Part shown: positions 22,826 to 62,083 of the stretch, piece by piece | Numbering within the stretch: position 1 is the stretch's first letter | Layout: each line of letters opens with the position of its first letter | Source of the DNA: Candidatus Spechtbacteria bacterium | Lineage (GTDB): Bacteria; Patescibacteriota; Minisyncoccia; Spechtbacterales; JACPHP01 | NCBI GenBank assembly: GCA_016188605.1 | Contig: JACPHP010000003.1 | Span: 16,400 to 80,399, forward strand | Length of the DNA: 64,000 nucleotides | Direction of reading: 5' to 3' | Notes under the pieces: model-generated | Database searches by the model: none | What the model saw: the letters and a program-made list of their open reading frames with translations, nothing else | Told to the model about the DNA's origin: nothing | Program-made: the position numbers and the translations under genes

Positions 22826-22855
22826 AAAACCCCGCCAATTGGCGGGGTTTTCAAT
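22826..22855. terminator. Bidirectional rho-independent terminator aaaaccccgccaattggcggggtttt
   Basis: Perfect GC stem flanked by A-run and T-run. Confidence 0.7.
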
Positions 22856-22860
22856 ATTTG

Positions 22861-23046
22861 TGCCGAGGGGGGGAGTTGCCCACAAATAAATTTCCTAACG
22901 GAAATTTTTCGCGGGCCGCTCCTCGCGGCGCTAGCCTTCCGCTCTAAGCGGAAACTAGCGCATCGCTGCGGCCTTCAACTCCCGACGCACGCAAAGCAGT
23001 TTGCGTGCTCCCTCGGCACACTAATAAATTATCCAAATTGTATATG
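22861..23046 (-). other. tRNA-linked structured element, copy A (3' of tRNA-Leu UAG)
   Basis: Starts with the tRNA acceptor 5' strand (gccgagg-gagc) and ends with a copy of the tRNA's T-stem 3' strand plus acceptor 3' strand (gcaactccccccctcggca). Contains hairpin gcacgcaaa-CUGC-tttgcgtgc and GGGAGTTGAAGG. Confidence 0.5.
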
Positions 23047-23130
23047 TGCCGAGGGGGGGAGTTGAACCCCCAAGCCCTTGCGAGCACTAGCTCCTAAAGC
23101 TAGCGTGTCTGCCAATTTCACCACCTCGGC
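23047..23130 (-). tRNA. tRNA-Leu(UAG)
   Basis: Reverse complement folds as a class II tRNA: gccgagg-tg-gtga..., anticodon loop ttTAGga, long variable arm, T-arm ggggg-ttcaact-ccccc. Confidence 0.75.
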
Positions 23131-28642: not shown

Positions 28643-31600
28643 TTACACTACCAGCGCAGATGCCACCTTATCCCCACTTTCAAGCCTCATAATGCGCACG
28701 CCTTGCGTAACACGACCGAGATGTGGAATATTCTTCAGACCAACACGAATGACATTGCCGCGCTCGGAAACAACTATTAATTCGTCCTCTTCTTCCTTAA
28801 GTATTTGCGCGCTAACAAGCGCGCCTGTTTTTGCAGTAATATTTGCCGCTTTAATGCCAAACCCGCCTCTATGCTGAACCTTAAATGAACCAATAGCAGT
28901 TCGCTTGCCGTATCCATTCTCCATGATAACAAGAATGTCTTGCTTCTTATCGCTCGCGCCAATCATGCCCATGCCTATTATTTCGTCGTTTTGCTTTACG
29001 TGCAAACCATGTACTCCCCCCGCGGCGCGACCCATCGAACGAATATCAGATTCTTTAAAACGAATACTCTGACCCTGTTTTGTTACCAGCATAATATCGT
29101 CTTTGCCTGTGGAGATTGCCACCCACTGCAAGATATCATTACCCTTCAAATGCAAGGCAATGAGTCCGTTGCGACGAACATTCTGGAAATCTTCGATCTC
29201 TGTCTTTTTGATTATACCACCACGCGTAACCATAACCAAAAATTTTGCTTCTTTAGGATTACGGTCAAGTGGGATAACGGCAGTTACGGTTTCGTTGGCA
29301 GTCAAATCCAAAAAGTTAACTAGCGCTTTGCCTCGCGCAATGCGCGTGGATCGCGGTATTTCATATGCCAGCGTTTGGAATACGCGACCCGTGGAAGTGA
29401 AAAACAAAATCCTGTCGTGCGTTGACGCGGACAAGAAATGCTCCACTAAATCTTCGCCCTTACGTTCAATGCCAAGAATACCCTTGCCGCCGCGATGCTG
29501 CTGCTTATAAACCGTTGGCTGTACGCGCTTAATGTAGCCGTCTTTAGTGATGGTGATAATAGTTTCCTCTTTTGGAATTAAATCCTCTTCTTTGAATTCT
29601 CCAAGAGCCGCGGCATGGACTTTCGTTTTGCGCGTCCCGCCGTAAAGCGTTTTAAGATCACTAAGCTCTTCTTTGATTTTTACCCACATGCGCTTTGGCT
29701 CGTCGAGAAGCAACGTCCATTCCGCGATAAAGCGCTTTTTCTCCTTCAATTCTTCTTCAATCTTTTTGCGCTCAAGATTAGCCAGGTTCTGCAAACGCAT
29801 ATCCAAAATCGCGCCGGCCTGAATGTCGGTAAAATCAAATTTCTTTTTCAAATTGTTATGCGCGTCGGCGCGGTCTTGCGACGCGCGGATAGTTTTAATA
29901 ACCTCGTCAATGTGGTCAAGCGCTTTTTTCAAGCCCTCCAAGATATGCGCCCTCTCTTTAGCGCGCGCGATATCAAATTCCGTGCGCCTGCGCACAACTT
30001 CATGCTTATGCGCAAGATAATGCTCGAGAACCTCTTTCAACGAAAGCACTCTCGGCTCGATACCATTAACAAGCGCCAGCATGTTGAGGTGGAATGTCCT
30101 TTGCAGTTCAGTGAATTTGTATAAGCTGTTTAGAATTTTTTGCGGATGCGCGTCGCGCTTCAGCTCAATAATAACGCTCATACCGCGCTGGTCTGATTCA
30201 TCGCGAATATCACGAATACCTTCGATGCGGCCGTCCTGCACAAGGTTTGCCATTGTTTCAATGAGAGTTGCCTTGTTTACTTGGTACGGAAGCTCTGTAA
30301 TTTCAATATAAGAACCTTTTACGTCATCGCGTTCGTTTTCATCAAAAATCTGCGCCTCGCCGCGCATTAAAATCGGCCCCTTGCCTTGGCCATATGCCTC
30401 CATAATCGCCTTCTTTCCATATATAGTGCTTCCGGTTGGGAAATCAGGACCCTGAATAAACTGAAAAATATCCTCCAGCGTCGCTTTAGGATGATTGATA
30501 AGATGAATAAGCGCGTCCACCACTTCATTAAGATTATGCGGCGGAATGTTCGTCGCCATACCAACTGCAATACCCATTGTGCCGTTAAGCAAGAGCTGGG
30601 GAATTGCGGAGGGCAAAACTTTCGGCTCCTTGCGAGTGCCGTCGTAGTTATCCATCCAGTCAACTGTGTCTTTATCAATATCGCGCAGCATTTCTACGGC
30701 AATCTTGCTCATACGCGCTTCGGTGTTGTGATTGATAAAACCATTTGCCACGAATGAATGGCAATCACTTTCTACTTTTATAGAATAAACCTTCTCTATA
30801 CCGCCGTCCTCAATTTTTACTATAGGATCAAAAAGATAATGATTATCCAAAAGTTGCGAAAAAAGATTGACAATGCTCGTTTCCACGCGATGCTCAACCG
30901 CTGTCACAACGCGCTCATAATTTCTTCCCATTTCCGTGTAACGATCGAAATTATGTTTCAATGCAAATTCACGCACATTGTACAAAACTGAATTGCTTAA
31001 ATTAGCACGAACATAGTCAGATAAAAACGGTACTGTGTCGCTCGCGGTTTGTTCTTTGAAGAGTCGCTCGATGGCTACGGTTAGTTTACTTTTTTTGCGC
31101 TCCGAAATAAATCCAATTTCTTTTGCAAAAACAGAATAATTACTCAGCCCTCGCAAATAAAGTTTGTGTGTCGCGCGATATTTGTCAAAACGCTTGGTTG
31201 CCGCAATGCCAAATCGCAAGAGTAAAATTTGTAATTGGCTAAGCAATTGTTCACTTTTTGATATCGCGCTTAATTCAGTCATTGTAGCGCTAAAGGTAAT
31301 AGTACCATCGCCCTCGAAATATGCGCGTATAAAAGAAGACGCAACTGCTTTTGACGAACGGAAAATAATATGGGGTATTGTTCTAGCGCCAGATTTTGCG
31401 GTAACTAGCCCTATATTGCGTAAAAAAGCAATTACATGCTGTGAATGCACTTCAAAAGTTTTATATGGCTTCGTGCCGTATGAATTGGGGCGGCGCTCGA
31501 AGGCATGCAACCGGCAGTCAGGAAAAACCCTCCTCCAACGCTCTGAAAATTCAGCCATCCATTCATCGTCCGTATTGCAAAACTCTAATTCTTTCTCTTT

Positions 31601-32512
31601 CAATGTACCTTCGGCAAGGAATGAACCGAGAATAAAAGCAAGATCTTCATCAAGCGCTTTGGGCAACTTTTTTTTCTGAATGCGCGCGTTGATTTGTTTC
31701 GGCCAATATGGAACAAGTGAAATATTTTTCACAGGCCATAATACATCCGCCGTACGGTCTATCACGGCAATGTCACCCACGCGAATATCTTGCAAAAGTT
31801 TCCAGCTAAATTCTGGTATCCCAGTAAGAACATTTTTCGTCCACGTAAGAATAGGATGATTGTAGGAACCTCTAATTGACGTTCCTCTCTGTGTAGTAAT
31901 AGATAAAATGGGATGCTCTCCACTATCAAACCATTTTTTTACAGTATTTACTGTGTGGTCTTTAGAAAGGACTGAAATATCAACGGCTTCCCTTCCATCT
32001 GAAGAAACATCTTTAATGGGAATAAGGCCATTAGAAGTAACTACTAATGTGTCGCCTGTCACGCAATAACGCATAGCAGCCGCGCTATCGCCATCTATGG
32101 ACCCAAAGTTTCCTTGCCCATCAACCAGCGTGTAACGCATGCTAAAATCCTGCGCCAAGCGCACCATAGAGTCATACACCGCCATATCGCCGTGAGGATG
32201 ATACTTTCCCAGCACATCTCCAACCACCGCCGCTGATTTGCGATACCGCGCGCCCGAAGTCAAGCCCATTTCGTGCATGGTATATAAAATACGGCGATGC
32301 ACCGGCTTTAAACCATCGCGGACATCAGGCAAGGCGCGCGCCACGATAACGGACATGGCGTAATCCAAATACGACTCCTGAACTTCGTCAGTAATTTCTC
32401 TTTTTTGAATATTTCCAATTGGATTTTCTGGGTCAGGCATGATAAAAACTTGAATACTGAATTGTGAATGCTGAATTGTGAATGACTGACCGAAGCATGA
32501 TTCATGATTCAC
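28643..32512 (-). CDS. gyrA: DNA gyrase subunit A, interrupted by an intein
   Basis: [24 protein letters not shown] and GKYHPHGD motifs; AAMRY|C...HN|TEARMS splice junctions. Start is probably MPDPENP at 32440; the first 24 codons lie in repeat sequence. Confidence 0.9.
30725..32065 (-). mobile_element. GyrA intein (447 aa) with LAGLIDADG homing-endonuclease domain
   Basis: Starts CVTGDTLVV and ends [12 protein letters not shown] before the Thr+1. LAGLIDADG-like motifs [10 protein letters not shown] and [11 protein letters not shown]. Inserted at the conserved Tyr-Thr site of the GyrA active-site region. Confidence 0.8.
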
Positions 32513-38011: not shown

Positions 38012-38183
38012 GATTTAATCCCTAATATCGTCATTGTGATCCGCCGCCCTGGGCGGAGTGGCCCGCCAGCAACGCCTTAAGCGTAGCTTTGGCGGGCTGG
38101 CAATCCCGTCGGTAATAGGTTTACGATTTAGGATTTATGATATACTATAACTGCGTGCAATTGCACGCAGTTATAGTATAATT

Positions 38184-38257
38184 CCGCCCTTAGCTCAACT
38201 GGTTAGAGCATCGAGCTTATACCTCGACGGTTCCTGGTTCGAGTCCAGGAGGGCGGA
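38184..38257 (+). tRNA. tRNA-Ile(UAU) (anticodon read as TAT)
   Basis: Acceptor ccgccct/agggcgg, D-arm gctc-aactggtta-gagc, anticodon stem tcgag/ctcga with loop ctTATac, T-arm cctgg-ttcgagt-ccagg. Confidence 0.6.
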
Positions 38258-38301
38258 CAGGGACTAAAACCCCAAAGTAGAGTTTATGTTTTCAATATGC
38301 C

Positions 38302-38338
38302 TTGGCGGTTTCCTGGTTCGAGTCCAGGCGCGCCCACA
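38302..38338 (+). pseudogene. tRNA 3'-half fragment (T-arm plus acceptor; duplicate of the tRNA-Ile T-arm)
   Basis: ggtttcctggttcgagtccagg-cgcgccc-a with no matching 5' half nearby. Confidence 0.5.
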
Positions 38339-38439
38339 GCAAGGATATTTAGCAAAGTACTTATAAGGTAGGCCTTGCGGAAAAACCGCAAGGCACGCTA
38401 TATTTTGTACTTGCTCGTTCCTCGCAAACAAAATATGCG

Positions 38440-38490
38440 GGCGTTTAGCTCAGTGGTAGAGGTTGAAAGCAAACTGCTTTGCTTTCAACG
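38440..38490 (+). other. 5' part of a split tRNA-like gene (acceptor plus D-arm) followed by a conserved CUGC-capped hairpin
   Basis: gggcgtt-t-a-gctc-agtggta-gagg, then gttgaaagcaaa-CTGC-tttgctttcaac. The 7-nt acceptor strand is exactly complementary to the 3' fragment at 38734-38740. Confidence 0.5.
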
Positions 38491-38618
38491 GAAAGTTTAG
38501 GTTTGGCATCCCCGCCGCAGCGGGGCGGCAAACCGTTTAAACTTTCCAGTGCACCTTTATTGCTTACACCGAGCGCAGCGTAGCGAAGTGAGGATAATTA
38601 GCAAGATAATTCAAGTAA

Positions 38619-38690
38619 GGACGGTTAGCTCAGTGGTAGAGCGTCTCGTTTACACCGAGAAGGTCGCAGGCTCAATCCCTGCACCGTCCA
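38619..38690 (+). tRNA. tRNA-Val(UAC)
   Basis: ggacggt-ta-gctc-agtggta-gagc-g-tctcg-ttTACac-cgaga-aggtc-gcagg-ctcaatc-cctgc-accgtcc-a. Confidence 0.8.
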
Positions 38691-38711
38691 CATTAAAAAA
38701 TCTAACGGGGC

Positions 38712-38743
38712 CGGAGGCTCAATCCCTCCAACGCCCACCATTC
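38712..38743 (+). other. 3' part of the split tRNA-like gene (T-arm plus acceptor plus CCA)
   Basis: ggagg-ctcaatc-cctcc-aacgccc-a-cca. The acceptor pairs with gggcgtt at 38440-38446. Confidence 0.5.
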
Positions 38744-41419: not shown

Positions 41420-41584
41420 CATCAATTTTTGTAAAGCAAAAATTGAAATTTATAGGTAAATGTTTTAGACTTTGGTTATTGATATCTAGCATTTGTTTGG
41501 AAATTAAAAAATGAATTGGCAAAGTCCCGTTTTAGCTAAAACTGTGCGGGCCTTGCCACGCCGTAGCTCGCGAAGCGAGCGTAG

Positions 41585-41656
41585 GCGGGTGTCGTATAGT
41601 GGCTATTATATCTCCTTGCCATGGAGAAGACGGCAGTTCGATTCTGCTCACCCGCT
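41585..41656 (+). tRNA. tRNA-Gly(GCC)
   Basis: gcgggtg / cacccgc acceptor; anticodon stem tctcc/ggaga with loop ttGCCat; T-arm ggcag-ttcgatt-ctgct. Confidence 0.75.
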
Positions 41657-43857: not shown

Positions 43858-43913
43858 ATCCATTTGTTGTTCATGGCGCCGAAAAACAGCCGTAAAGAGT
43901 TATGCACAGCACA

Positions 43914-43953
43914 CAAAACGAAACTCCCAATCCATGGATTGGGAGTTTCGTTT
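43914..43953. terminator. Hairpin aaaacgaaactcccaatccatggattgggagtttcgtttt
   Basis: Perfect palindromic stem flanked by an A-run and a T-run. Confidence 0.5.
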
Positions 43954-43956
43954 TGT

Positions 43957-44080
43957 GTGCCGGGAGAGGGAGTTGCCCTAAAGGGTCCGGGGCTGACGGT
44001 CGCCTAAAACGACATCGTCAGCCCTTCAACTCCCTATGCACGCAAAGCAGTTTGCGTGCGCTCCCGTCACTAAAAATTGG
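43957..44080 (-). other. tRNA-linked structured element, copy B (3' of tRNA-Leu UAA)
   Basis: Minus sense: gacgggagc-gcacgcaaaCUGCtttgcgtgc-ata-GGGAGTTGAAGG-[hairpin gctgacgatgtcg...cgaccgtcagc]-gcaactccctctcccggca. The 3' end repeats the tRNA's T-stem 3' strand and acceptor 3' strand. Confidence 0.5.
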
Positions 44081-44164
44081 TGCCGGGAGAGGGAGTTGAA
44101 CCCTCAAGGGCTTGCGCCCAGTGGATTTTAAGTCCACAGCGTATGCCAATTCCGCCATCCCGGC
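44081..44164 (-). tRNA. tRNA-Leu(UAA)
   Basis: Reverse complement: gccggga-tg-gcgg-aattggcat-ac..., anticodon stem gtgga/tccac with loop ctTAAaa, long variable arm, T-arm gaggg-ttcaact-ccctc. Confidence 0.75.
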
Positions 44165-47868: not shown

Positions 47869-47955
47869 GGTGGGGTGCCTGAGTGGTTGAAGGGGACGGT
47901 CTCGAACACCGTTAGAGGAGAAATCCTCTCGTGGGTTCAAATCCCACCCCCACCG
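47869..47955 (+). tRNA. tRNA-Ser(CGA)
   Basis: ggtgggg / ccccacc acceptor; anticodon stem acggt/accgt with loop ctCGAac; long variable arm tagaggagaaatcctctcg; T-arm gtggg-ttcaaat-cccac. Confidence 0.75.
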
Positions 47956-48087
47956 CAACGAACGAAGTGAGTGAGAATGGGGAGCGACACAACTGCTTGT
48001 GTCGCGTGTGGGATTTGAAGGGTTTACGATGTCTCGCTAGACGAGACCGTAAACCCAGGGCACATTAATCCTCCCACCCCCACCGCA
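47956..48087 (+). other. tRNA-linked structured element, copy D (3' of tRNA-Ser CGA)
   Basis: gaatggggagc-gacacaaCUGCttgtgtc-gcgt-GTGGGATTTGAAGGG-[hairpin tttacgatgtctcg...cgagaccgtaaa]-...-tcccacccccaccgca. The 3' end repeats the tRNA-Ser T-stem 3' strand plus acceptor. Confidence 0.5.
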
Positions 48088-48114
48088 AAGTTAGAAGAAG
48101 AAAGGAGTATTGTA

Positions 48115-48711
48115 ATGAACCTTACTATTATTTTCGCGGTAGCAGCTCTAGCTTGCTTAATATTTATCTACGGATTCTTTTATACCCCAAAACTTCGCGC
48201 GCAACGTAAAGCTAAAAAACAGCAAGCTAAAAAACTAGAGGAAGAAATCAGATCGCAAAAAGCCGCGGCGAAACTCCGCGCATGGCAAATGCTTGAGCCG
48301 ATGCTCACGCCCAAACAACTATTGCAAAAAGAAAAATATGGTTATATCCTAGAAAAAGGGTCGTGGGGTTATTATCTTATTCCCATGAAGCGCATAACAG
48401 TTCTTTTTCAATCGTATTCAACCACCGAAGCACTAAAACAAAGAATGAATGCCTATGAAACTGGCAGAATAACACAATATGCTGCGCGCGCAGAGCGTTG
48501 CTCTATTTGCTTAAATGATACGGGATGCGAAGCGCCTTGGTATGATGCCGTAGCCACTTTTCTTTATACTATTCGTGGCGGAGACGAAGTTGTTATTTTT
48601 GAAAAAGGAGTTGTGCTATCGCTTAGCTTTTTAACGGACAACTACTCTAATATTCTGAATCTTCTTAGCGAAGCGTTAGCAAGCGCAACAGAGCAAAGGA
48701 GCGACCAATGA
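48115..48711 (+). CDS. Hypothetical protein with N-terminal TM and K-rich coiled segment
   Basis: 198 aa. AAAGGAG RBS 8 nt upstream. Confidence 0.5.
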   Translation: MNLTIIFAVAALACLIFIYGFFYTPKLRAQRKAKKQQAKKLEEEIRSQKAAAKLRAWQMLEPMLTPKQLLQKEKYGYILEKGSWGYYLIPMKRITVLFQSYSTTEALKQRMNAYETGRITQYAARAERCSICLNDTGCEAPWYDAVATFLYTIRGGDEVVIFEKGVVLSLSFLTDNYSNILNLLSEALASATEQRSDQ

Positions 48712-57666: not shown

Positions 57667-60600
57667 TCACACCTCGCACTGCCCGTACCCGCAGGACTCG
57701 TTTATACAGGCGTTACAGCCATTGTCCATTTTAAGTGTCTGCTCTTGGCAGGCTGGGCAAGTGTAAAGCTGCATCTGCGCCGAAATCAAGGATGCGTGCG
57801 GCTTTGCCTCTACTTGCTCGCGTACGTCTGGCTCGTTTTTTGCAAACGTTAACCCCGTTGGAGTAAATTGAATCTGCGCCTCCATGTCAGGCACCGTGCT
57901 ATCCATAATGGCATCTTGTTCTTCCTCTTCCGCGACGCTTTCCGCGATCCTTATCTCATTCTCTAGTACGGCCGCGGTAGATACAGCGGCCGTCACTACT
58001 AGCTGTTCAACTTTTTCCCGCGGCGTAACATCCATCTTTTCTGCCCCCTCTACGATATGTAAATTTTTAACTTCATCTGCTTTCATCCAGCCATAATGCA
58101 AAGCATGAAATACGGTCGTCAATCGCCCACTAGGCAAAACAATCACATCATCACCTTTCACTTCTTTGCCATCCCACTTGTAAACATTATTCTTGTATTC
58201 CTCAATCGCGGATTTTTCTCCAACAGTGCTTAAAATCGCAAAACGAGATCCTTCACGATAGATAGTAATTCCTTTTAATCCCGTGCGCCACGCGTCTAGA
58301 TAAATATTGGAAATAACTTCAGGCTCAATGTCTTCAGGCAAGTTCACGGTAGAAGAAATGCTATGGTCTATATACTGCTGGCACACACCCTGAATTTCCA
58401 CGCGCTTGTCTGGCGCGATGAAATGAGCAGTGCGGAAAAAATGCGTTGGCAAAATACGCTTGAGCTCGTCCATATCTCCCGCATGCTCAACCCGATCTTG
58501 CAAGTTATTCTGCTCAATATACGCAGATACGGTAGAATGGAATACCTTAAACATTTGATTGTGAAAACTCTCCGACCGGCGCGTATAGTACAAAGAAAAT
58601 ATTGGCTCCACGCCAGAGCTAACGCCAATAAAATTCTTCGCGCCAAACTGATAGCTCAACACGATATTGGAAATGCTGCCGGTGGGCGCTATGGAAAGCA
58701 GGGCAATATTGCGCAGGCCTTTTTGCCTCACTATTTCGCGCGTTTCCTCGTTCAAACTCTTTTGGAAAAACTCGCCTCGAGAATATGTTTCATAATCAAA
58801 TATCGGAGAAGACCCTTTTTCCTGCGCGATGTCTGCTGAAGCGCGGTACACCGCGTTTGCAATAAAACTCATCACTCGTTCAATTACCGCGATGCCCTCT
58901 TCGCTGTCGTAACCCATGCCAAGCTCGTTTAACATGTCGGCAATTCCCATCACGCCGATGCCGAGACGCCTCGTTTCCTTAGCCGCGCGTCGCTGTTTCT
59001 CTAAAGGATTTAATGTTTCGTTCCATGTAACTACGTTATCTAGAAAACGAGTTGCCACGGCCGCGGTTTTGGCCATGCCATCCCAATCAATTGAAGCACC
59101 TTCTACATATGGGTTTCGTACAAATCGCGACAAGTTAATGGATCCCAAGTTGCAAGCGCCGCCGTCCTCCAATGGAATCTCGCCGCAATTATGAACGACA
59201 ATTCCATTAGCGACAAAAGAATGGGTTTGTGGCTCGGTCAAATCATAAACCGGCTCTTCTCCACTTGCTTGTATGCTTTCTATCGCAGCCTCAAATCGTT
59301 CTTTATAAGGTCCGCGCACAAAAGAAGCAGTGCTGGCATTTATGCGATCTTGTTTTTGCTTTGACAAAAATCCGATCTCTTTGGCATACACATAAAGACT
59401 AGCGCTGCTTATCATCAAATCATGTTGTGCCTTGCAAAAATATTCCTTTCTGCCTCCATGGCCATCGGGAAGCGGTCGTGTCATAGCTGGTCTCCTATTC
59501 TGATAGATAACACTGTAAATACCAAAACTTAAAAGCATAAGTTGTGTTTTGTGTAGCGCATCAATATCCACACTCGTAAGGCGCACAGAAAATCCTTTCT
59601 TGGCCGTACCCTGGATAGAGCCGTCGGCAGTAAAAAGCGCGCGGAGAAATCCTCGCTGGCATTCTCTCCCCATTTGCAATACATTCACAGGAAAACGCCC
59701 CTCGCACACTCCATAGCGAACCGCAAGATTGGTAATTCCCTGCGAACGAAGGTTTATACTTGCCCCAGAATGTATAGGTGTCAGTTCTCGTCCCGTAGAA
59801 CAAGTAACTGCTTCGCGAAGAGCAGGTAAGCATTCTTGCTTATCATCGCCATAAAAATATAGTATGCTTCTACCGTCATTTTTTGCATTGTAATGGCCAT
59901 CACCCGCAAGCCATCCAAGAGTAAGTCCTTCCTCGTAAGTCCCGTTTCTTCCATACATACCTTCTAATTTACCAACGACAACCTTCTCGCCTTCCTGTAA
60001 TTCTGCCAGTGTCTTCCACCCACTTGGTGTTTGAATACGATGATCTGCGGTCGCCTTCAAAACAAACCCTTCGCGAGTAGTTAAAGTATATGTAGGTTTA
60101 ATTCCAGTTTGCCATACGCGCGCCGCCTCCCCGACCCGACCTCCGTCCAACAGCAGTAATGGTTGTTTGCCTACAAGTTCGCTGATAGGTAAAAGGCCGT
60201 CCACAGTGGAAACAAGCGTGTCGCCTGTAACGCACGGATTTGTGCTTGCGATAGGCCTGCCCGCGTAGTTGGACGGCGACATGCTTGACATGCGCGTCCA
60301 AAATAGCAGCCCCGGCTCTGCCGTGCGGTAATTCCCTTCCACAAACGCGTTCCACAACTCGCGCGCTTTTACCAAACGCTTTACCTCGCCCGTTTGCGCG
60401 GAGTTAAAATACAGCATAAAATCACCGGAGTATTTTATCGCAAAATCACTATCGCTGCGCGGACTTGCTACCAAATAATCGCCAAACATATCGCGGCGGC
60501 CGGCATCACCAAGAATATCATGCGTCAAAGAACCGCAACCCTGCTCTGCCAAAAAAGCATTGAGTTCGGAAATACTGGTGAATGTGCCACGAAGCGTGTA

Positions 60601-62034
60601 GCGCTCAATTGGCTTTGACGGAATGCCGTAGGAATAATTTACCTCACCTCCTTGCGAGATACCAAGCGAACTTACTGACTTATCTTTCTCATAAACCAAA
60701 ATTGCCTCGCCCCCGTGCTCGTTTTGCTCTTCTACCGCGCGCATAAACTCGTCGTTCATTTTTAAGCTGATATTAGCGGAGCGCACCTGCGTGTTTTCTC
60801 GCACCTGGCGTTCAATTTCCGTCATCTGATCGACGGAGAACTTGCCGCTCATCTTGCACTGTTCAAGTATCTGCCTTGTAACCCAGTTAGGATTCTTTTT
60901 TGCTTTCACAAACAGCGGACTGTCAGGATGCTTAATGTCCAACGTCAACATCAAAGCGCCGCGGCGCCCAGACTGGCCGATTAAACCAGTCGTAAGAGAA
61001 TACAACTCCATAAAGGACACGGCGCCTGTGGATTCATCAGCCGCGTTATGCACCACGGACCCTGCCGGACGCAAGGTAGTGATATCAACCCCAATTCCAC
61101 CGCCGTATGAATAAGTACGCGCGCATTCATAAGCCGCTTTGTAAATTGACTCCAGGTTGTCTTCCTCAATCACTGATACAAAACAATTGGCAAGCGTTTT
61201 AAGGCGATACAAGTCGCCAGAGCCTGCCAGTACGCGGCCGCCTGGCATAAAATATCCCTCATACAAAATCTTGTAAAAATCTTCAGCGTGCACCTGCTGG
61301 CGTTTTTCATCCGGCTCAACCGATGCCATGAAAGCGGCGAGGCGCGCAAAAACGTCTTCCGGCCTCTTCTCTAGGCGATTACCCTCCAATGTTTTTAGAT
61401 AATATTTTTTCTGGTAGATTGTTGTAGCAAGCTCGTTATTGCCAAGATAGTTTCCCTCGGGATGCGTAGCCAGCTTGCCGGTTTTCTGCATTGTTTTCAA
61501 ATAGAAAAGGATATTTTTGTATGCTTCAATGCGATCATAGCCAAGGAGCGATGCCAGTTTGCTTTTGTGAGCGAACATGTGCAGCAGAGCGCTTTTTTCT
61601 TTATCGTCACCCTTTGATGCTTCGTTTGCAGCACTGCGCAATTCCGCTCGTTTTGCGCGATACAAAATATATGCTTTCGCTGTTGTGGCATGGCCTTCGT
61701 CAATTAACACTTTTTCTACGATATCCTGAATTTCCTCAACGGTGGGGAATTTTTTTTCTGACTCTTCGATTCTTCGGCATACCACATCGCTCAAACGCTG
61801 TGCTTCATTTTTGTCGTTACCGCCGACTGCCCGCGCGGCACGAAAAATTGCGTTCACCACTTTTTCCTGCTCAAAAGGCACCATTCGCCCGTCGCGCTTT
61901 GCTACTTTTTCAATATTCCAATGTTTTTGCGTGCGTGGCGCGGGCACAGGAGTGCCGTGTACAAGATTACTATGAGCTGATTGTGGTGTATAGCTGGGCA
62001 TAACTTTAAAAATTTTAATTTCTAAAATATTCAA
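57667..62034 (-). CDS. nrdJ: Adenosylcobalamin-dependent (class II) ribonucleotide reductase with N-terminal ATP-cone, interrupted by an intein
   Basis: ATP-cone (KRDGRMVPFEQEKVVNAI), catalytic-core blocks, C-terminal Cys-rich tail; intein junctions STNP|CVTGDT...VVHN|CGEIP. Confidence 0.8.
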   Translation of the reverse strand: MNILEIKIFKVMPSYTPQSAHSNLVHGTPVPAPRTQKHWNIEKVAKRDGRMVPFEQEKVVNAIFRAARAVGGNDKNEAQRLSDVVCRRIEESEKKFPTVEEIQDIVEKVLIDEGHATTAKAYILYRAKRAELRSAANEASKGDDKEKSALLHMFAHKSKLASLLGYDRIEAYKNILFYLKTMQKTGKLATHPEGNYLGNNELATTIYQKKYYLKTLEGNRLEKRPEDVFARLAAFMASVEPDEKRQQVHAEDFYKILYEGYFMPGGRVLAGSGDLYRLKTLANCFVSVIEEDNLESIYKAAYECARTYSYGGGIGVDITTLRPAGSVVHNAADESTGAVSFMELYSLTTGLIGQSGRRGALMLTLDIKHPDSPLFVKAKKNPNWVTRQILEQCKMSGKFSVDQMTEIERQVRENTQVRSANISLKMNDEFMRAVEEQNEHGGEAILVYEKDKSVSSLGISQGGEVNYSYGIPSKPIERYTLRGTFTSISELNAFLAEQGCGSLTHDILGDAGRRDMFGDYLVASPRSDSDFAIKYSGDFMLYFNSAQTGEVKRLVKARELWNAFVEGNYRTAEPGLLFWTRMSSMSPSNYAGRPIASTNPCVTGDTLVSTVDGLLPISELVGKQPLLLLDGGRVGEAARVWQTGIKPTYTLTTREGFVLKATADHRIQTPSGWKTLAELQEGEKVVVGKLEGMYGRNGTYEEGLTLGWLAGDGHYNAKNDGRSILYFYGDDKQECLPALREAVTCSTGRELTPIHSGASINLRSQGITNLAVRYGVCEGRFPVNVLQMGRECQRGFLRALFTADGSIQGTAKKGFSVRLTSVDIDALHKTQLMLLSFGIYSVIYQNRRPAMTRPLPDGHGGRKEYFCKAQHDLMISSASLYVYAKEIGFLSKQKQDRINASTASFVRGPYKERFEAAIESIQASGEEPVYDLTEPQTHSFVANGIVVHNCGEIPLEDGGACNLGSINLSRFVRNPYVEGASIDWDGMAKTAAVATRFLDNVVTWNETLNPLEKQRRAAKETRRLGIGVMGIADMLNELGMGYDSEEGIAVIERVMSFIANAVYRASADIAQEKGSSPIFDYETYSRGEFFQKSLNEETREIVRQKGLRNIALLSIAPTGSISNIVLSYQFGAKNFIGVSSGVEPIFSLYYTRRSESFHNQMFKVFHSTVSAYIEQNNLQDRVEHAGDMDELKRILPTHFFRTAHFIAPDKRVEIQGVCQQYIDHSISSTVNLPEDIEPEVISNIYLDAWRTGLKGITIYREGSRFAILSTVGEKSAIEEYKNNVYKWDGKEVKGDDVIVLPSGRLTTVFHALHYGWMKADEVKNLHIVEGAEKMDVTPREKVEQLVVTAAVSTAAVLENEIRIAESVAEEEEQDAIMDSTVPDMEAQIQFTPTGLTFAKNEPDVREQVEAKPHASLISAQMQLYTCPACQEQTLKMDNGCNACINESCGYGQCEV
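59188..60234 (-). mobile_element. RNR intein (349 aa) with LAGLIDADG endonuclease domain
   Basis: Cys1 at residue 601, terminal HN before Cys+1 at residue 950. LGWLAGDGHY and LRALFTADGSI motifs. Confidence 0.75.
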
Positions 62035-62040
62035 TCATTG

Positions 62041-62083
62041 CGAGGACGAAAGCCAAGCAGTTGGCTTTCGTCCTCGCAATGAC
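62041..62083 (-). promoter_or_regulatory. 20-bp perfect hairpin capped by CUGC immediately upstream of the nrdJ start (minus sense)
   Basis: Minus sense: cattgcgaggacgaaagccaa-CUGC-ttggctttcgtcctcgcaatg, ending 7 nt before the nrdJ ATG. Confidence 0.4.

Follow-up and report, generated by a model that had tools for sequence, protein, structure and literature searches.

Integron cassettes and the CTX phage recombine through folded single strands. Retrons combine flanking inverted repeats and a priming G in a conserved AGC with an adjacent reverse transcriptase gene, and transfer-messenger RNA (tmRNA), present once per genome, unites a transfer RNA (tRNA)-like domain, a tag reading frame and pseudoknots in about 350 nt. 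Here we describe structured elements that stand directly 3' of three tRNA genes in a 64,000-nt stretch of DNA from Candidatus Spechtbacteria bacterium (GenBank assembly GCA_016188605.1, contig JACPHP010000003.1, positions 16,400 to 80,399 of the forward strand), hereafter the window. They are members of a previously undescribed family that is widespread among Candidate Phyla Radiation (CPR) bacteria, which account for a large share of bacterial diversity and whose small genomes leave little room for junk. Our results show that these elements combine conserved modules, namely hairpin 1, a GAA-GG junction and hairpins 2/3, with an inverted and a direct copy of the 3' end of each host gene. We tentatively interpret them, with slightly less than even confidence, as non-autonomous insertion elements that are specific for tRNA and tmRNA 3' ends and have a strand-specific folded form.

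Three structured units behind tRNA genes of the window

Three of the 13 tRNA genes in the window, on which the ARAGORN and Rfam calls concur, bear an element, which lies in each case directly 3' of the host tRNA and on the same strand (Table 1). Read in the sense of the tRNA, copies A, B and D have the same order of parts: a spacer, a 5' arm, the bases GAGC, hairpin 1, a linker, an inner arm, one or more further hairpins and finally DR2, an exact 17-20 nt duplicate of the tRNA 3' end (direct repeat 1, DR1). The original prediction had described three copies of this architecture, and our coordinates agree with it to within 3 nt. The copy of the acceptor 5' strand that it placed before GAGC is present at 7/7 positions in A (GCCGAGG), 6/7 in B and 5/7 in D, and hairpin 1, laid out as GC-N5-AACUGCUU-N5-GC, has the identical cap that had been noticed. 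Its stem is the same in A and B, and different yet complementary in D; we take the identity between A and B to be weak evidence, because the repertoire of stems is small across all genomes. The linker has 2-4 bases (GU-N in most copies, AU in B), and the inner arm terminates in UUGAAGG and pairs with the 3' end of the element. By layout, one long hairpin follows the inner arm in B and D (short type) and two follow it in A (long type), so that the variable hairpin and the terminal tRNA 3'-end copy of the earlier description are both found.

In agreement with the claim that the copies are no random duplication, the motif AACTGCTT-N(8-20)-TTGAAGG is found three times in the window, where 0.00 occurrences are expected, and the folds reach z-scores, relative to dinucleotide shuffles, of -7.6 (B), -8.6 (A) and -4.8 (D). 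The minimum free energy is -65.9 kcal/mol for copy B and -98.7 kcal/mol for copy A, and the predicted topology is alike in all three copies, with an outer helix, hairpin 1 and an inner helix that encloses the other hairpins. The full matches in the window to R1, a covariance model (CM) of the 5' core of the element, are exactly these three copies (A 65.7, D 60.0 and B 50.4 bits).

No terminator separates copies A and B from their tRNAs, and DR2 is immediately followed by a strong one; the hairpin and U-run that adjoin copy B are likely, judging from their sequence, to form the intrinsic terminator of a tRNA-Cys/tRNA-Leu/element transcript. Copy D is directly followed by the ribosome-binding site and ATG of an open reading frame (ORF), 48115-48711. 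Several elements behind tRNA and tmRNA genes share a purine-rich spacer motif, (A)GCGAACGAAGUGAG(C)GAG (copy D, 47957-47976, plus strand; loci L051, L089, L153 and L117), and GCGAAGYGAG-like strings are seen in the loops of hairpins and also upstream of further tRNAs (window ~38575-38595 and ~41560-41585).

Table 1. Coordinates of the host tRNA genes, the elements with their parts and the related hairpins in the window
Feature	Position	Strand	Basis and remarks
tRNA-Leu(UAG), host of copy A	23046-23130	-	ARAGORN, Rfam; DR1 23045-23064
Copy A (long type), whole	22859-23045	-	fold, CM, coordinates
Copy A, spacer	23021-23045	-	
Copy A, 5' arm UGUGCCGAGGG	23010-23020	-	
Copy A, hairpin 1	22987-23008	-	
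Copy A, inner arm GGGAGUUGAA	22974-22983	-	
Copy A, hairpin 2	22915-22972	-	
Copy A, hairpin 3	22879-22914	-	
Copy A, DR2 CAACUCCCCCCCUCGGCACA	22859-22878	-	
Terminator-like hairpin after copy A	~22826-22856	-	
tRNA-Leu(UAA), host of copy B	44078-44164	-	ARAGORN, Rfam tRNA 56.6 bits; DR1 44080-44098
Copy B (short type), whole	43957-44077	-	fold, CM, coordinates
Copy B, spacer	44071-44077	-	
Copy B, 5' arm GUGACGGGAG	44061-44070	-	
Copy B, hairpin 1	44038-44059	-	
Copy B, inner arm AGGGAGUUGAA	44025-44035	-	
Copy B, hairpin 2	43990-44024	-	
Copy B, hairpin 3	43976-43985	-	
Copy B, DR2 CAACUCCCUCUCCCGGCAC	43957-43975	-	
Long hairpin and U-run right after DR2 of copy B	43912-43957	-	
tRNA-Ser(CGA), host of copy D	47869-47956	+	ARAGORN, Rfam; DR1 47942-47958
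Copy D (short type), whole	47957-48088	+	fold, CM, coordinates
Copy D, purine-rich spacer	47957-47976	+	
Copy D, 5' arm AUGGGG	47977-47982	+	
Copy D, hairpin 1	47984-48005	+	
Copy D, inner arm GUGGGAUUUGAA	48008-48019	+	
Copy D, hairpin 2	48020-48056	+	
Copy D, DR2 UCCCACCCCCACCGCAA	48072-48088	+	
Possible aberrant relative, 'copy C'	38439-38740	+	sequence, repeats, weak CM match 19.6 bits; family membership uncertain
Solo perfect 21-bp hairpin with AACUGCUU cap	62036-62081	-	CM partial match 23.1 bits; sequence

A family matched to its tRNA and tmRNA hosts

In the GTDB species genomes, a loose pattern gave 114 chance matches against 6 real ones with a complementary hairpin 1. All 6 lie 15-52 nt downstream of a tRNA and on the same strand, in metagenome-assembled genomes of CPR bacteria assigned to Parcubacteria, Moraniibacteria, Azambacteria and unclassified 'bacterium' bins. 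A tighter pattern yielded 58 loci in JGI metagenomes; in all, the scans added about 55 members to the three of the window. The 70 pattern matches from all sources include 62 structurally valid copies, from 59 sources, defined by at least 4/5 complementary pairs in the unconstrained N5 stem of hairpin 1, a filter that about 7% of raw matches would be expected to pass by chance. Because the collecting patterns fix GAGC, AACTGCTT and TTGAAGG, variants are under-sampled and the invariance of these motifs is inflated. The covariance-model search that the original prediction had suggested finds, with R1, all collected CPR members besides the three full copies of the window. A same-strand tRNA is called within 300 nt upstream of 43 copies, and in two more loci, L117 and L127, the upstream gene is a tmRNA (matched by Rfam; ARAGORN called no tRNA). 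The hosts comprise tRNA-Leu (UAA, CAA, GAG, CAG, UAG), tRNA-Ser (GCU, UGA, CGA), tRNA-Pro (GGG, CGG, UGG) and tRNAs for Tyr, Met, His, Phe, Val and Arg, to which later variants add Lys and another His; the range covers at least 10 amino-acid identities among tRNAs, plus tmRNA. Element sizes cluster at ~105-190 nt, and both long and short types are present in the window and in many other genomes. Rfam 15, applied in gathering and E-value modes to the window, copies A and B and ten loci, matched only tRNAs and two tmRNAs, which upholds the earlier statement that the elements could not be matched to tmRNA or to any known RNA family, and full-text literature searches found no description of the element.

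The host tRNA gene is intact, and its last ~17-24 nt are present once more, in direct orientation, where the element ends. Exact repeats of 14-24+ nt were found in 28 non-redundant loci with a called tRNA (37 before removal of duplicates). With the TTC of the T-loop numbered 54-56, position 56/57 is where the repeat begins in 21 of these 28 loci, later starts going together with mutated copies; the other boundary ranges from position 69 to past 100. The encoded CCA is inside the repeat where the gene has one (L139, L157); elsewhere the repeat has the genomic bases past the discriminator, and the trailer in copy A is ACA, not the ACCA of a mature tRNA. In L146 and L160 the repeat spans the whole downstream terminator, 42-47 nt in total. 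The presence of genomic trailer or terminator sequence in the repeat means that it was copied from DNA or from a primary transcript, not from mature tRNA; priming from mature tRNA is ruled out, since added CCA is not what the repeat contains.

The two arms together are the reverse complement of tRNA positions ~54-76, split near the T-stem/acceptor junction by GA, hairpin 1 and the linker. The 5' arm is the part complementary to the acceptor 3' strand. The inner arm had been described as the T-stem 5' strand followed by TTGAAGG; its pairing with the 3' end of the element holds, but it is better described as the reverse complement of the whole T-loop and the T-stem 3' strand. The inner arm matches the real tRNA more closely than its own DR2 in 35/35 non-redundant loci, a result partly imposed by the pattern, whose fixed TTGAA is the complement of the universal TTCAA/TTCGA. 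For the 5' arm, the match to the real tRNA is better than to DR2 in 24 of the 35 loci, tied in 5 and worse in 6. In unconstrained variants the inner arm tracks the local T-loop, with GGGAATCGAA for TTCGATTCCC (L164), GGGATCGAA for TTCGATCCC (L004-Lys) and ACTTGAA for TTCAAGT (L171); the exception is L004-Leu, whose inner arm fails to match the T-loop.

Hairpin 1 is 99.7% paired over 40 distinct sequences, a figure to which the filter of at least 4/5 pairs adds slight circularity. All of its five variable pairs change on both sides (64 cells), which none of 500 column shuffles equalled, and no slid register comes near the pairing of the true one, so that the covarying stem of the original prediction is found in the family at large. 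In short-type elements, one hairpin with a conserved CG-AU-G bulge is followed by CC(N)GG and a small hairpin. Long-type elements have GCC-GYA-GCG-AU-GC...CGC-GA-GGC and then a hairpin with a conserved stem, GGUCGCGAA/UUCGUGACC, which includes a G.U pair. RNAalifold recovers the inner helix; with MAFFT alignments of whole short-type elements, only hairpin 1 and the inner helix were recovered, hairpins 2/3 and the outer helix being misaligned, and single-sequence folds were therefore used for the latter. The sense strand is stabler than the antisense strand in 20 of 26 elements, including all the long-type ones (Wilcoxon p = 0.0017). This bias points to a structure that belongs to one strand, the one in the sense of the tRNA, be it RNA or the corresponding DNA, and not to a symmetric duplex site. 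On that strand, as shown by prediction and covariation, the inverted copy clamps the direct repeat into a continuous acceptor/T-like helix, with hairpin 1 branching off at the point from which the D and anticodon domains extend in a genuine tRNA. Some members (D, L081, L004-Lys) have only a short outer acceptor-like helix or none, and the tRNA mimicry put forward in the original prediction is therefore partial only, although an acceptor/T-like helix is indeed predicted.

Units also occur in tandem. Three identical 156-nt units stand behind the initiator tRNA-Met of L136, three 126-nt units behind tRNA-His in L164 (with a single unit behind tRNA-Pro on the same contig) and heterogeneous ~330-nt units behind tRNA-Leu(CAA) in L171, L149 and L175. 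Degenerate copies are frequent as well: the second unit lacks hairpin 1 in L153 and ends abruptly within it in L143, the 3' half is missing in L131 and L168, L127 has an interior of ~250 nt with DR2 reduced to a stub, L004 holds two degenerate units, with no outer helix behind tRNA-Lys, and in L172 and L075 DR2 has diverged with no compensation in the arms. The 'host' in L166 is a tRNA 3' fragment only. Solo copies make up the L122 group, in which neither tRNA nor DR1 is found for kilobases, and a solo variant in L186 (3610-3720, minus strand), far from tRNA 3' ends, consists of a 10-bp hairpin with the AACUGCUU cap, an inner arm, a hairpin and a AAAATTCCCCGTGCA end; the small genes flanking it look, by sequence, like an RHH-type antitoxin and a RelE/ParE-type toxin. 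Assemblies of the same organism among Logan contigs (L179-L184) repeatedly stop within a few tens of bases of elements, which fits repeat-induced assembly breaks; contigs with proteins identical to those of the window are short and stop at the element.

The comparison with relatives that had been proposed turned out in favour of empty sites, with the limit that the relatives are distant (the IF-2 of the nearest ones is ~58-60% identical). The tRNA-Leu(UAA) site is empty in all three relatives with infB-rbfA-DHH-tRNA-Cys-tRNA-Leu(UAA) synteny, a terminator or the next gene following directly, and the tRNA-Ser(CGA) site is empty in both relatives that have it on the contig. No canonical copy was found behind the 14 tRNAs of four related loci. 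One relative (L185, 5104-5190, plus strand) has a different tRNA-like pseudo-unit after tRNA-Cys, which combines GAGGC/GCCTC acceptor-like pairing with a single long hairpin and an intact T-arm, whose TTCGATT loop is normal, and which lacks the AACUGCUU hairpin.

No ORF fits within a unit. Among the ORFs of at least 90 aa clustered from the 58 loci besides the window, no neighbour protein family occurs in more than five loci, and Pfam scans of the window ORFs beside the copies found housekeeping genes only and no integrase. The next 4 kb of L168, whose element lacks its 3' part, hold no integrase, and neither this locus nor the ORF clustering nor the IMG/VR patterns revealed a larger, integrase-carrying version.

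The window itself is cellular genome, not phage: its ORFs include housekeeping functions (FtsH, a short IF-2, a class I aminoacyl-tRNA synthetase, Lon-like and PrkA-like proteins and others, from Pfam scans), and a megablast of 12 kb against phage records gave no match. The IF-2 of the window is 100% identical to a protein that NCBI lists for a Candidatus Spechtbacteria bacterium, the next best matches reaching only ~60%, which places the window in the CPR. The genes for GyrA (28643-32512, minus strand) and for the large subunit of class I ribonucleotide reductase (57667-62034, minus strand) each have an intein carrying a LAGLIDADG homing-endonuclease domain. The solo hairpin of Table 1 lies ~40 nt upstream of the ribonucleotide reductase ORF and adjoins no tRNA; the AACUGCUU cap is therefore used outside tRNA-linked elements. 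Copy C seems to be a tRNA-Val-like gene split open. After its acceptor 5' strand and D-arm (38439-38461) come a 12-bp hairpin that bears the AACUGCUU cap (38462-38489), a second long hairpin (38490-38547) and a 10-nt duplicate of the anticodon loop and stem of tRNA-Val (TTACACCGAG), ahead of an intact tRNA-Val(UAC) nested within it (38619-38691); the T-arm, the matching acceptor 3' strand (GGGCGTT/AACGCCC) and CCA come at 38713-38740. Nearby is a tRNA-Ile(UAU) gene (38184-38258, plus strand), with an anticodon that is uncommon in bacteria, where AUA is usually read by a modified CAU anticodon. A perfect 40-nt palindrome, TATACTATAACTGCGTGCAA/TTGCACGCAGTTATAGTATA (38141-38180, plus strand), stands 4 nt before it, and its stem has the 7-mer GCACGCA in common with hairpin 1 of copies A and B; the window shows no enrichment of this 7-mer. 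An isolated tRNA 3' part (38311-38338, plus strand), 53 nt after tRNA-Ile(UAU), has the T-arm of that tRNA and a different acceptor 3' strand (CGCGCCC), and no 5' strand partner for it was found nearby.

Insertion element, functional RNA or guide

The arrays, the decayed and solo copies, the patchiness of occupancy, the fixed repeat boundary within the T-loop and the lack of cargo fit a selfish, non-autonomous element better than a housekeeping RNA. The tRNA families are far older than the CPR, and the module must therefore have reached each tRNA separately, gaining matching arms each time. In this regard, a site-specific event in the T-loop may duplicate the downstream part of the gene as a unit arises or moves, a step that would require an unlinked, trans-acting enzyme, and the folded single strand could serve as the recombination substrate, as in integron attC or the CTX-phage attP hairpin. 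By analogy, the order DR1, spacer, inverted copy, hairpins, DR2 is the residue expected if a folded single-stranded circle with an inverted-plus-direct repeat integrates; the fixed left end, the variable right end and the host trailer in the repeat would also be expected from a nick in the T-loop followed by target-primed copying, with the arms as guide. Alternatively, the fold might render a co-transcribed insert tRNA-like, so that tRNA-processing enzymes trim it harmlessly. Established units would then amplify into tandem arrays, persist for a time and decay. Several observations speak against an insertion element. For none of the copies did we find a linked recombinase, reverse transcriptase or HUH nuclease, and no such enzyme was identified elsewhere; the assemblies show no free or circular form, and two patterns run on IMG/VR viral contigs in search of a phage-borne parent returned 0 real copies. 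Loss is as possible as gain at the empty sites, because the relatives concerned are distant, and L160 and L169 have orthologous elements behind tRNA-Phe, ~90% alike, whose persistence includes two base-pair differences in the hairpin-1 stem, both compensated. Simple cut-and-paste or integrase movement between tRNAs is insufficient, because the arms match each local tRNA, a match that needs copying from the target, guide-like evolution or long co-evolution. The copies in L133 and L157 must be transcribed, because they are inside tRNA operons, and the conserved unpaired motifs (AACUGCUU, GAGC, the AU bulge of hairpin 2) and the GGUCGCGAA/UUCGUGACC G.U pair look like RNA under purifying selection.

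These last observations lead to the main rival, a tRNA-like non-coding RNA useful to the host and transcribed with or just after the tRNA, which we consider a serious contender, if a rather unlikely one. On this account cleavage by RNase P at the outer helix, with the 3' end set by RNase Z or a terminator, would release a stable RNA of ~100-170 nt. Such an RNA might act in the processing or insulation of tRNA precursors, or its AACUGCUU hairpin might be bound by a protein, and its match to the tRNA at both ends would be maintained by selection or local gene conversion. The fold is consistent across members, hairpin 1 covaries perfectly, the sense strand is favoured, conservation of the unpaired motifs extends to distant CPR lineages, and the G.U pair is conserved too. 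In A, B and several other loci DR2 is succeeded by an intrinsic terminator, the elements of L133 and L157 lie between two tRNA genes, DR2 retains the encoded CCA where the tRNA gene has one, and the AACUGCUU hairpin that stands alone upstream of the ribonucleotide reductase gene suggests a trans-acting reader of this hairpin. However, transcription is certain for some copies and doubtful for others: a good intrinsic terminator intervenes between the tRNA and the 5' arm in ~11-14 of 35 loci (~11 by a crude detector, a few more by eye). The acceptor-like helix is short or missing in the members named above, many copies are truncated or decayed, and tandem triplets are identical. Moreover, the arms are a closer fit to the real tRNA than to the 3' end of their own element, decay of DR2 is uncompensated (L172, L075), occupancy is patchy both in the window and in the related loci, and no function explains service to at least 15 different tRNAs and tmRNA.

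The closer fit of the arms to the intact gene would agree with their forming a split guide, of RNA or single-stranded DNA, that pairs with tRNA or tmRNA gene positions ~54-76, a reading that we consider improbable. A trans-acting nuclease, recombinase or reverse transcriptase would nick the T-loop at ~55-57, and the 3' part of the target would serve as primer or homology. The arms complement the intact tRNA including T54-C56, which is absent from DR2, and trailer bases of DR1; many keep a U opposite G57, a wobble tolerated in RNA, and the inner arms of L164 and L004-Lys follow their local T-loops. The left boundary of the duplication is fixed (56/57) and the right one varies, host-specific terminator sequence being carried along in L146 and L160, and the same hairpin-1 variants are joined to arms for different tRNAs. 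Against this stand the partly imposed TTGAA portion of the inner-arm result, the mismatch in L004-Leu, the competition for the guide that DR2 in the same molecule would cause, the absence of a candidate enzyme among those sought and of direct evidence for an RNA or single-stranded DNA intermediate. We hold it scarcely less improbable that the element as a whole is a protein-less, guide-carrying and retargetable homing element of ~120 nt, which reads the last ~22 nt of a gene and has had its specificity rewritten for at least 15 tRNAs and tmRNA. Least probable are decayed scars, that is, the attL and attR residue of prophages or islands integrated at tRNAs, with the interior lost and no structure of its own. 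Such scars would account for direct repeats of classical length and position at tRNA and tmRNA 3' ends and for L166, where a tRNA 3' fragment precedes the element as in multiply occupied att sites, but not for an interior that is homologous across loci, tRNAs and distant genomes, with covarying helices and conserved loop motifs, nor for sizes that cluster narrowly and the failure to find any larger version with an integrase. The structureless island remnants that would have undone the original prediction are thus largely refuted by internal conservation and covariation.

Together, the two accounts that the original prediction offered are each supported in part: the likeness to a miniature attL/attR-flanked element by the direct-repeat geometry, the tmRNA sites, the tandem and decayed copies and the empty orthologous sites, and the co-transcribed tRNA-like RNA by the covariation of hairpin 1 and the stability of the sense strand. 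Our data do not decide between mobile DNA and functional RNA, and both can hold, for instance if an insertion element survives through trimming of its tRNA-like transcript. What is new is a conserved unit of ~120 nt, matched to its hosts, that has repeatedly colonised tRNA and tmRNA 3' ends and has neither an Rfam family nor, as far as our searches went, a paper. If mobile, the unit ranks with the smallest known elements that are site-specific, and the question becomes how an inverted-plus-direct copy of each new target gets built in. If it is a functional RNA, it would represent a new tRNA-like class linked to tRNA biogenesis in organisms whose RNA-processing machinery is reduced. Under either reading a covariance model and testable predictions are now available, and annotation gains a rule: regions with these elements cause breaks in short-read assemblies and may be misread as fragments of tRNAs.

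Comparison with known systems

Several described families were considered as identities for the elements and rejected. A tRNA (RF00005) does not apply, as cmscan at gathering thresholds returned only the 13 true tRNAs, the E-value mode gave no tRNA match on A and B, and ARAGORN made no call; tmRNA (RF00023) was rejected on the lack of an Rfam match on the elements, their length of 105-190 nt and their multiple copies. Neither motifs nor Rfam matches speak for the hammerhead, other known ribozymes or domain V of group II introns, and a T-box is excluded by the lack of an antiterminator and of an aminoacyl-tRNA synthetase gene context. A retron (msr-msd) was likewise rejected: the outer inverted repeat and GAGC are present, but there is no adjacent reverse transcriptase or recurrent gene. 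TIGR arrays of CPR bacteria have 36-nt units with two alternating repeats of 8-12 nt and 9-nt spacers, next to a Nop-domain Tas gene (PMC12045711). Compared with that description, the arrays reported here have units of 126-330 nt, a different layout and no linked gene, and the TIGR/Tas identity was discarded.

With REP/BIME, BOX, RUP, Correia and ERIC sequences and miniature inverted-repeat transposable elements (MITEs), our elements have in common that they are short, non-coding, rich in hairpins, multi-copy, often co-transcribed and without an enzyme of their own. They differ in being strictly specific for tRNA and tmRNA 3' ends, with target-matched arms, and in a duplication that is long and variable rather than short, fixed and accompanied by terminal inverted repeats. 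A MITE proper was rejected, since the ends of the element are not mutual inverted repeats, the duplication runs from 14 to more than 40 nt and the right end varies. The 18-nt primer-binding site of retroviruses and long terminal repeat retrotransposons is likewise a complement of ~18-22 nt of a specific tRNA 3' end that ends in the T-loop; the complement in the element, however, is split by a hairpin, matches the genomic trailer rather than added CCA and comes with no reverse transcriptase.

The tRNA-like domain of tmRNA, the bacterial Y RNA (YrlA), the t-elements of plant mitochondria and mascRNA resemble the element in having a coaxial acceptor/T-like helix with tRNA sequence in its 3' strand, one arm in place of the D and anticodon domains, co-transcription with tRNAs and, from the modelled fold, plausible recognition by RNase P, RNase Z or the CCA-adding enzyme. 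Unlike them, the element has no real T-loop or D-loop, half of the T-loop being paired away, its outer helix is variable or absent, and it exists in many copies that are individually matched to many tRNAs.

Islands and prophages integrated at tRNA or tmRNA sites by tyrosine integrases, with attL/attR ends, show the same targets, an intact gene, a direct repeat of ~17-24 nt from the T-loop to or past the 3' end and tandem occupancy of sites. The flanking direct repeats of such an integrative element are present here, but an encoded or adjacent integrase is not: our elements measure ~105-190 nt, with no integrase or ORF, add an inverted copy of the target and a conserved, covarying interior of several hairpins, and sometimes hold host-specific terminator sequence in the repeat. 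Closest in geometry, and in geometry only, are integron attC and the attP(+) hairpin of the CTX phage (IMEX), with the same order of direct repeat, rest of the element, inverted repeat, loop and direct repeat. In both, an inverted-plus-direct repeat folded in one strand imitates a duplex target, structure is conserved over sequence and arrays form; in line with this, the element has an imperfect inverted repeat in one strand, its arms pairing with DR2 in all folds, and a bias toward the sense strand. No R/L core boxes (GTTRRRY) or dif-like core are evident by eye in the element sequences. The element differs from attC and attP(+) in that its target is the tRNA 3' end, not attI or dif, and in the large conserved hairpin that branches from the middle of its stem.

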